From the NCBI GenBank assembly GCA_977020255.1, contig CDROCS010000579.1:682001-746000 (forward strand): a stretch of 64,000 nt of DNA, given 5' to 3'. The translations under genes and the position numbers were made by a program. The notes below the pieces were generated by a model. That model did not search any database. It was not told the DNA's origin and saw only the letters and a list, made by a program, of their open reading frames with translations. Of the stretch, positions 49,380 through 50,265 are shown one piece after another (the first letter of the stretch is position 1; the number at the start of each line of letters is the position of its first letter). Source of the DNA: Obrimoposthia wandeli (Eukaryota).

Positions 49380-50265
49380 TTATACGTTGTCTAAAATTAA
49401 ATATTCATCGGAGTCGGAGTCGGAGTCGGAGTCTGTTATCTCACTTGGGATACTCAACAAATCGTTTAGACGAAATTCCTCCACCAGTCTATCTCTACGT
49501 TTTTCAAAAACTCGCTTAATATTCTTAGTATCCTCTAAACATGTGTGAATCTTCTTCTATGTTTCTCCAAAATATTTTGATATCATTGTCTTTAATCCTA
49601 TTTTTGGATGGTTATGACCAAGTTCTGTTCTTATTTCAGTTGATGCACCCAGGTCCACGATTCTAGCAAAATGGTGTTTTCCTAGTCTTAATACTTTCAA
49701 ATCATTTTCTAATCCTGCATCTATCAAAACATTTCCTACTAAAACTGATTGTGATTTTTCAATGACTTCCTCAGCATCAGTCTTTCCTGTCAAAGATTTT
49801 TCAGTGAAACCAATTATAAACTTAACATAATTTCGTATTCATTCTCTTGGCATTACTATTTCATGTAATCCAATCTGATCTTTTTCATCTATGATTATTA
49901 CAATAGATGCTAGCCAATGTTTGTTTTGTGTCTACCGTGATGGCCATTTCACAGTCCATGAAATATTTAATTGGAATTGTTGATATATTTGCATTTTCTA
50001 AAAGCATTATTTTATTCGTTTTTTAGATCAACTCTACAAAAAATGTATTTCTCCTGGGACTAAATTTTAGGAGATATTCGTTTCTTAACTCTGTTTTATC
50101 AATGGTATAAGAATGATTTTGTAAAAACATGTGACTTAAGTTATTTTCTTGTTTACTCAATAAATGGGCTTTTACTTTTGCCACATGAATTTCTATTTCT
50201 TCTACGTCTAGTAAATCTCCTACTGATTCTGATAAATGTATTCTTACATTTTTGGTGTGGTGCAT
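49380..50265 (-). pseudogene. DEDDh 3'-5' exonuclease (REX4/REXO/ISG20-like) within the Gypsy
   Basis: Manual translation: YFMDCEM (ExoI)...LASIVII...VLVGNVLIDAGLENDLKVL (ExoII)...RIVDLG...GLKTMISKYFG...HTCLED (ExoIII), ending DSDSDSDSDEY. It has 3 stops and 1 frameshift. Confidence 0.85.

Follow-up and report, generated by a model that had tools for sequence, protein, structure and literature searches.

A clade of Gypsy LTR retrotransposons carries a DEDDh exonuclease as a conserved accessory gene; we regard the identification of the enzyme and of the element architecture as very likely correct. The gene (49383..50530, minus strand) was found in a 64,000-nucleotide (nt) stretch of genomic DNA, referred to as the window, where it forms a damaged frame of approximately 385 codons with three stops and three frame breaks. 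Its DEDDh 3'-5' exonuclease domain (49494..49974, minus strand) was delimited by motifs, a PDB match, and a fold match, and a beta-rich N-terminal domain (50053..50399, minus strand) by conservation and predicted strands. Inspection of the minus strand revealed the motifs DCE, ENDL, and HTCLED, and alignment to a copy of this genome whose frame is naturally open placed the catalytic codons at 49956 (D), 49950 (E), 49703 (D), 49547 (H), and 49532 (D). Thus, all five catalytic residues claimed in a first-pass annotation of this DNA were located. In the same alignment, the stops of the window copy are at 50025, 49841, and 49559, and its frame breaks are near reference codons 37, 73, and 214. The first-pass annotation had described three stops and a single frameshift, which is correct within its limits of 49380..50265, and had rightly remarked that the domain as a whole is absent from the list of open reading frames (ORFs). 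The 290-aa protein it proposed was too short, since the true frame of approximately 385 aa starts at an ATG at 50530.

When a natural family A copy (the family of the window element) was compared with the PDB, the plant enzyme SDN1 (E 5e-8), ISG20 (E 5e-4), and ISG20L2 (E 0.013) were matched. A profile built from 21 relatives matched ISG20L2 (E 1.5e-29), ISG20 (1e-23), and SDN1 (6e-21). The predicted structure has a mean pLDDT of 77, exceeding 90 across most of the DEDDh domain, and aligns with ISG20 over 162 residues (Z 21.5, rmsd 2.1), showing a DnaQ-like fold in the model. A lack of any DEDDh profile hit had been named beforehand as an outcome that would speak against the enzyme; the matches to SDN1, ISG20, and ISG20L2 are the opposite outcome. 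General family profiles were less sensitive: Pfam RNase_T matched the C-terminal half of the window protein at E 0.014, below the cut-off, and gave no match at E<=1 in three of three natural full-length family A copies, while an NCBIfam scan returned weak DnaQ/PolC matches only. All aligned proteins (21 of 21) keep the active-site residues D, E, H, and D at an identity to the first protein of 21-32%, and the ExoIII histidine is present in all aligned proteins. This, together with best matches that are DEDDh enzymes, assigns the nuclease to the DEDDh type and not to the tyrosine type (RNase D-like). By analogy with SDN1 and ISG20, we infer that it would act in trans as a metal-dependent, two-metal 3'-5' exoribonuclease on single-stranded RNA ends.

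Among 1.84 billion representative proteins searched, 1199 matches were obtained, and the best 150 of these were used for the analyses. In a tree of nuclease domains with 157 rows, the proteins with the N-terminal domain form one group (SH-aLRT 92). In a second tree of 47 chosen rows, 20 element rows lie on one side of a branch with support 81/99, apart from 12 REX4-side and 10 REX1/SDN-side rows; one long row without a label falls inside the element group. The names of the sides reflect an SDN, REX4, or exonuclease name for just 5 of the 10 clusters looked up. ISG20 itself and host REX genes were not among the tree rows. The host genes are missing because the five top PF00929 loci recovered from the element's own genome look bacterial when translated. 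Because the element proteins form their own clade, the nuclease is not a captured REX4/ISG20 orthologue, and the term REX4/ISG20-like in the first-pass annotation describes how the enzyme works, not its orthology. The annotation was correct about the REX1/REX4/ISG20/SDN type of the enzyme, and the phylogeny it had suggested, run here against REX1/SDN- and REX4-side rows, yielded a separate, element-borne clade without nesting in REX4. Word-based protein searches confirmed 0 of 2123 candidates with the query P0003 and 3 of 8000 with the profile, and 0 of 70 pattern stretches were confirmed in an IMG/VR scan. In the element's own assembly, side matches included intronless DnaQ-, oligoribonuclease-, and AlkB-like genes (L102-L151) on what appear to be bacterial contigs.

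The N-terminal domain has one helix and eight strands at residues 88-174 of the model. A profile built from 21 proteins matched 30 of 161 sequences, 21 of these by construction. Against the PDB, this profile gave a single match at E 0.9, and against Pfam nothing common to two members. The sole structural row for the domain was ALKBH6 (Z 9.8, rmsd 3.1, 128 aligned residues, 6% identity). When the domain was folded alone, its pLDDT was 46 and no match exceeded Z 4.2, a confidence at which matches are meaningless. Searching the ESM Atlas with the domain of two proteins gave no usable match, a result that shows neither novelty nor absence. An AlkB/2OG-Fe(II) dioxygenase was considered and rejected at the sequence level: none of the 30 aligned N domains has a conserved HxD iron motif, and hhalign against 15 AlkB-family ORFs gave a probability of 0.3% and no profile match. 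Judging from the one ALKBH6 row and the model, the domain is possibly a metal-free double-stranded beta-helix, which would bring the nuclease to its substrate or partner.

The window element is a 5'-truncated copy. From its 5' side, it comprises an integrase remnant that is cut off at 53571 (52727..53571, minus strand; Pfam rve E 5e-12), an in-frame pol extension of approximately 400 aa with hydrophobic segments (51199..52757, minus strand; broken here), and a small accessory ORF of approximately 145 aa with CxxC and coiled-coil-like features (50660..51100, minus strand; limits approximate, broken here). The exonuclease gene follows on the element's sense strand, approximately 180 nt ahead of the polypurine tract and the start of the 3' LTR at 49204. 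The short purine-rich tract in polypurine-tract position (49205..49215, minus strand) abuts the LTR start in other copies. The 3' LTR remnant (48790..49204, minus strand) corresponds to the first ~410 nt of a 720-1060-nt LTR and is 84-90% identical to the LTRs of paired copies. The similarity of longer copies to the window ends at 53571, inside the integrase; because of this truncation, the window copy is without gag, env, protease (PR), reverse transcriptase (RT), or RNase H. The first-pass annotation had placed the gene between an env-like ORF and the polypurine tract on the sense strand. Its strand and its position before the tract were correct, and the reading of the upstream ORF as env was rejected: this ORF is continuous with integrase (IN) in a 959-aa ORF of one copy (L040) and has neither a Pfam (envelope or other) nor a PDB match. 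The extension is kept in families C and E at 62-74% identity, and it contains a C..HW motif, presumably reminiscent of cysteine proteases. The small CxxC ORF is likewise found as ORFs in other copies and is 64% identical in family B and 36% in family C.

In longer family A copies, the true env sits between gag and protease, and the full order is gag, PF24664 env, PR, RT, RNase H, IN, extension, CxxC ORF, exonuclease, polypurine tract, and LTR. The env product is a fusion glycoprotein of the Monjiviricetes type (PF24664 matches at E 3e-45 and 3e-30). The E 3e-30 match lies in one ORF with the protease, and gag knuckles share another ORF with the env start; as these ORFs belong to different copies, they suggest a single polyprotein, which is unbroken in 0 of the 8 family A copies listed. 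The order PR-RT-RNase H-IN was found by Pfam on ORFs of L037 and on the metagenome loci L068 and L069. LTR pairs are 94-99% identical in 11 of 12 longer stretches, the LTR-to-LTR length is 10.8-14.2 kb in nine measured copies, a TGG primer site follows the 5' LTR in several family A copies, and a 4-bp target-site duplication was read by eye in 6 of 7 copies. Thus, the Ty3/gypsy gene order, LTRs, primer site, purine tract, and duplication are all present, and the element is a Gypsy element as first annotated.

The neighborhood of the element holds further mobile DNA. A Maverick/Polinton-like region (54300-64000) with a protein-primed PolB (PF03175 E 4e-12) adjoins the truncated copy and is interrupted by a hAT remnant near 59834-60463. 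Other ORFs in 54300-64000 have no Pfam match, and we take them to resemble a cysteine protease and a capsid protein by their motifs. For family A, Maverick-like DNA held or adjoined the element in 6 of 12 long stretches and, among short loci, in 7 of 29; such flanks were present in 1 of 6 and 0 of 20 cases for family B and in 1 of 17 for family C. A target preference of family A for Maverick-like DNA is possible. A large foldback-like element with tandem subrepeats and long inverted arms that are 97-99% complementary occupies 15650-23800, and a second, partial copy lies at 31380-34180. At 44180-44435 (plus strand), an exon-like stretch has no Pfam match at E 0.001; its translation is reminiscent of the final exon, with a transmembrane segment, of DEG/ENaC channels.

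The exonuclease gene is present throughout family A. A DNA search of its own genome gave 326 candidates, and all 40 that were scored cover the exonuclease stretch at 91-100%. Absence from other copies, the second outcome named in advance as counting against the gene, was therefore not observed. Intact copies, a check proposed in the first-pass annotation, do exist: 7 of 30 fetched family A copies, the reference included, have an open frame of approximately 385 aa, and 23 of 30 are broken. Among the other family A copies, 25 of 29 keep all five catalytic residues and 6 of 29 are fully open; in family B, 19 of 19 copies keep all five.

Variants restricted to a single copy were 151 non-synonymous to 41 synonymous, near the neutral expectation of approximately 3.8:1 (site ratio 915:240). 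In contrast, variants common to several copies were 30:30 (Fisher p=3e-5). Such a depletion among shared variants, with singletons near neutrality, is expected when selection removes amino-acid changes as a lineage replicates and the resulting copies then decay neutrally. This shows that purifying selection acted on the exonuclease gene during replication of the elements. In family B, the corresponding counts were 42:23 versus 26:29 (p=0.066, not significant; 19 copies chosen by protein score). An isolated retrocopy insertion was ruled out by the family-wide presence and the selection signal. The many broken family A copies (23/30) and the low identity between families would also be expected if a host REX gene had been captured once and was carried without benefit. 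We consider such a passenger highly improbable: the depletion of amino-acid changes among shared variants (p=3e-5) largely refutes it, the active site is invariant (21/21), and the clade is not nested in the sampled REX1 or REX4 rows. Five stop codons are common to more than one family A copy, suggesting that copies without a working gene may have been amplified.

Own-genome searches were also performed with two distant relatives (112 of 4094 and 86 of 3077 candidates scored; 20 loci of each examined) and defined families B, C, and D; family E was reached by a hammerhead pattern search. The nuclease identity to family A is approximately 41% in family B, 41-43% in C, 31% in D, and 38% in E. Families B, C, and E have pol, extension, and nuclease in the same order as A, and env precedes pol also in B and C; no pol match was detected in two 10-kb stretches of family D. 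Among the family D loci L172-L174, one copy has a nuclease ORF that terminates with an extended acidic peptide repeated in tandem. In a metagenome, 7 of 372 scanned stretches were confirmed, and these have a single assembly prefix in common. The metagenome loci L068 and L069 have env-PR-RT-RH-IN ORFs of more than 3000 aa, which are followed by the nuclease gene. In L064 and L066, the nuclease comes after RING and TRAF/MATH ORFs in an accessory cluster, and in L063 it is followed by LTR, primer site, and gag as read by eye. The cluster ORFs (L064:54-2475 and L066:300-4637) include RING proteins and complete TRAF-like ones that combine RING, zinc finger, and MATH. Across the clade, the exonuclease gene is last or near-last before the LTR; most other proteins with the N-terminal domain come without a genomic setting.

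The nuclease diverged far faster than pol, at approximately 40% versus 85-91% identity, and also much faster than env. Compared with family A, pol of families B, C, and E is mostly 81-95% identical, and the nuclease 38-43%. In the comparison of A with B, identity is 91% for pol (dN 0.05, dS 0.68), 83% for a part of env (dN 0.10, dS 2.3), and 47% for the nuclease domain (dN 0.52, dS 1.7-2.4); families C and E show the same contrast between nuclease and pol. Synonymous sites are near saturation, so these rate ratios are rough. Fast change combined with an intact active site would fit a host-facing protein. Relaxed constraint or exchange of a 3' cassette could look similar, and the nuclease dS (1.2-2.4) exceeds the pol dS (0.68).

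These rates bear on a role in the element's own replication, in which the nuclease would process the 3' ends of genomic or subgenomic element RNA, the primer tRNA, or cDNA ends, or would proofread the 14-kb genome. REX4-type enzymes trim structured RNAs, which is in keeping with such a helper, as are the conserved catalytic residues, the purifying selection, and the fixed gene position in a clade of large elements. Moreover, 3'-end processing is suggested for the rotifer DEDDy ORF3 in the available text of PMC5408684. However, a core enzyme should track pol, and the nuclease dN is approximately 10 times the pol dN. The separate ORF outside the polyprotein and the stops common to several copies also argue against a replication helper, which we judge to be possible but doubtful.

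The gene start carries a putative 3' splice acceptor, a pyrimidine tract with a CAG abutting the ATG (50531..50570, minus strand). Of the 28 family A copies in which the start was located, 27 have an AG abutting the ATG, compared with a background of 6.3% of ATGs in the fetched loci. A YAG lies 0-4 nt before the ATG in seven of nine lineages (A, B, C, E, the L063-L066 group, L068, and L069), the chance rate for AG anywhere in this interval being several times 6.3%; it was not found within 0-4 nt in D or L067. From this conservation, we infer that the nuclease is probably made from a spliced subgenomic mRNA, as described for rotifer ORF3s in the accessible part of PMC5408684. On the antisense strand (48915-48988, plus strand), the hammerhead motif described below is closely preceded by a stable hairpin and a site resembling a splice donor, and a donor-like site is also present in the LTR of L049.

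The first-pass annotation had mentioned an antisense ribozyme, and this observation was borne out. The LTR contains a type I hammerhead motif antisense to the element (48996..49045, plus strand), with predicted cleavage after 49039. It has the CUGAnGA and GAAA core, an NUH site, and three stems with an open stem I, and the fold z for 48935-49055 is -4.25. The Rfam model HH9 scored 17.2 bits (E 0.41), under its 52-bit gathering cut-off, and there were no Rfam matches at gathering. Compensatory changes were found: 6 of 15 pairs are changed on both sides, 99% of cells are paired, and 8 rows are distinct. The covariation score is reached by 0 of 500 shuffles and lies far above slid controls, a count that is not a probability because the rows are related. 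In family A, 23 LTR hammerhead matches are spread over 12 of 12 stretches. Variants were found in 5 of 6 family B stretches and at 10 of 17 loci of family C. In family E, a variant adjoins the nuclease; of 20 loci with the E-type hammerhead, 2 have the nuclease within 1.5 kb. The motif was not found at 3 of 3 family D loci or at 7 of 7 metagenome loci, although an entire LTR seems to be included in one of the latter. The predicted hammerhead is thus present in the LTRs of four families (A, B, C, and E) and is not universal in the clade. One locus (L095:4613-4688) combines a family B body with an A-type hammerhead in its 5' LTR, and its two LTRs match at 82%, suggesting LTR exchange between families.

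The hammerhead would be an independent device acting in cis: by cutting read-through RNA of the antisense strand shortly ahead of the element body, it would leave the genomic RNA intact. Hammerhead cleavage leaves a cyclic phosphate, which is not readily attacked by DEDD enzymes. Such an end argues against direct coupling of enzyme and ribozyme. Nuclease and ribozyme, for which the first-pass annotation had considered a joint RNA-silencing evasion module, co-occur in four families and are better taken as two devices frequently found together than as parts of a single obligatory unit.

For the nuclease, our leading but tentative explanation, which builds on analogy, is a host-facing role in which the enzyme would trim the guides of small-RNA pathways or antisense RNA directed against the element. 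Silencing evasion is plausible in view of related enzymes: SDN1 trims AGO1-bound miRNAs (PMC6123492), and the arenavirus ExoN suppresses immune signaling (PMC7968707), as far as the available parts of these reports go. A host-directed function apart from small RNAs, such as degradation of sensed cytoplasmic nucleic acid or of competitors' RNA during superinfection, seems unlikely to us. ISG20 as the closest solved fold and the RING and TRAF/MATH ORFs in the accessory cluster of L064 and L066 would suit such a factor, and Burro elements carry apoptosis and ubiquitin domains (accessible text of PMC6431247). However, no TRAF/RING match was obtained in the family A ORFs scanned, and the antisense hammerhead in four families points to antisense RNA as the pressure.

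Within the preferred trimming of guides or antisense RNA, a more specific arrangement can be drawn, which we consider improbable in its entirety: a clade-encoded counter-silencing pair, consisting of a spliced nuclease that docks on PIWI/Argonaute and trims guides and, in some families, the hammerhead. If this were true, the beta-helix-like domain would dock, the DEDDh domain would trim, and the hammerhead would destroy antisense RNA before dsRNA/piRNA production. We know of few element-encoded counter-measures to small-RNA silencing in animals. How transposons persist against this silencing is an open question, for which the clade offers an enzyme with a conserved catalytic site and naturally open frames. 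With its selection signal and putative cis-acting ribozyme, the clade makes the question of counter-silencing approachable in the tube and in a reporter cell. Even under a rival reading, the data describe a second, independent DEDD capture by LTR elements, a protein domain of no assigned family, and a Gypsy-LTR hammerhead.

Accessory DEDD exonucleases in LTR elements are already known. The first-pass annotation had pointed to such precedent; for the nematode Cer elements it named, none came up in the literature search, and the documented precedent is in rotifers, where Juno and Vesta LTR retrotransposons and Terminons carry a DEDDy ORF3 (PMC5408684), called a well-known accessory domain in the available text of PMC6338049. 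Like the rotifer ORF3, the nuclease described here is a separate DEDD-superfamily ORF downstream of pol with conserved catalytic residues. In the accessible part of PMC5408684, rotifer ORF3s, whose function is putative, are described as typically spliced and show no clear departure from neutrality, whereas purifying selection is detectable here. Furthermore, our enzyme is of the DEDDh REX/ISG20/SDN type, has an extra N-terminal domain, and stands beside env instead of replacing it.

The elements resemble GAG-ENV-POL gB-type errantiviruses, which are multicopy, measure approximately 14 kb, and have a PF24664-type env between gag and pol (PMC13524379); in family A, a class III-like env lies between gag and protease. 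The family A env resembles the Smed_errantivirus_1 row, by eye only (PMC13524379). An env between gag and pol is also found in planarian Burro (PMC6431247). In contrast to Burro, family A elements are 10.8-14.2 kb and not >30 kb, and the family A ORFs scanned have no BIR, ankyrin, MATH, or BCL2 Pfam match; among clade members, TRAF/MATH was seen only in L064 and L066. Mention of a nuclease or ribozyme was found neither in the accessible text of the errantivirus report (PMC13524379, with seven supplements) nor in that of the Burro report (PMC6431247).

With the cellular enzymes ISG20, ISG20L2, REX4, REX1, and plant SDN1, the element nuclease shares the fold and the DEDDh active site, but it forms a separate clade and has a different N-terminal domain; an SDN1-type RRM was not matched in natural family A copies. 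The arenavirus nucleoprotein ExoN is another DEDDh enzyme, encoded by a virus and directed at the host, a comparison by analogy only (PMC7968707). Unlike the element nuclease, ExoN groups with Maelstrom and has a zinc finger according to the part of that report available, and it was not among the matches listed for the element nuclease. Type I hammerheads have been described in Penelope-like pLTRs and in retrozymes of animals, and type III hammerheads in plant LTR retrozymes (PMC7229834, PMC6765202, 10.64898/2026.07.22.740005, in their accessible parts). The motif described here is similar in its canonical core, three stems, and location inside a terminal repeat. It differs in that it lies in the true LTR of a protein-coding Gypsy element, antisense to the element RNA; no report of a hammerhead in protein-coding Gypsy LTRs was found in the accessible literature, Repbase and subscription journals being outside the scope of the search. 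As far as our searches reach, new features are thus the DEDDh type of the accessory exonuclease, its N-terminal domain, its spread in a clade with a gB-type env, the selection signal, and the antisense LTR hammerhead.
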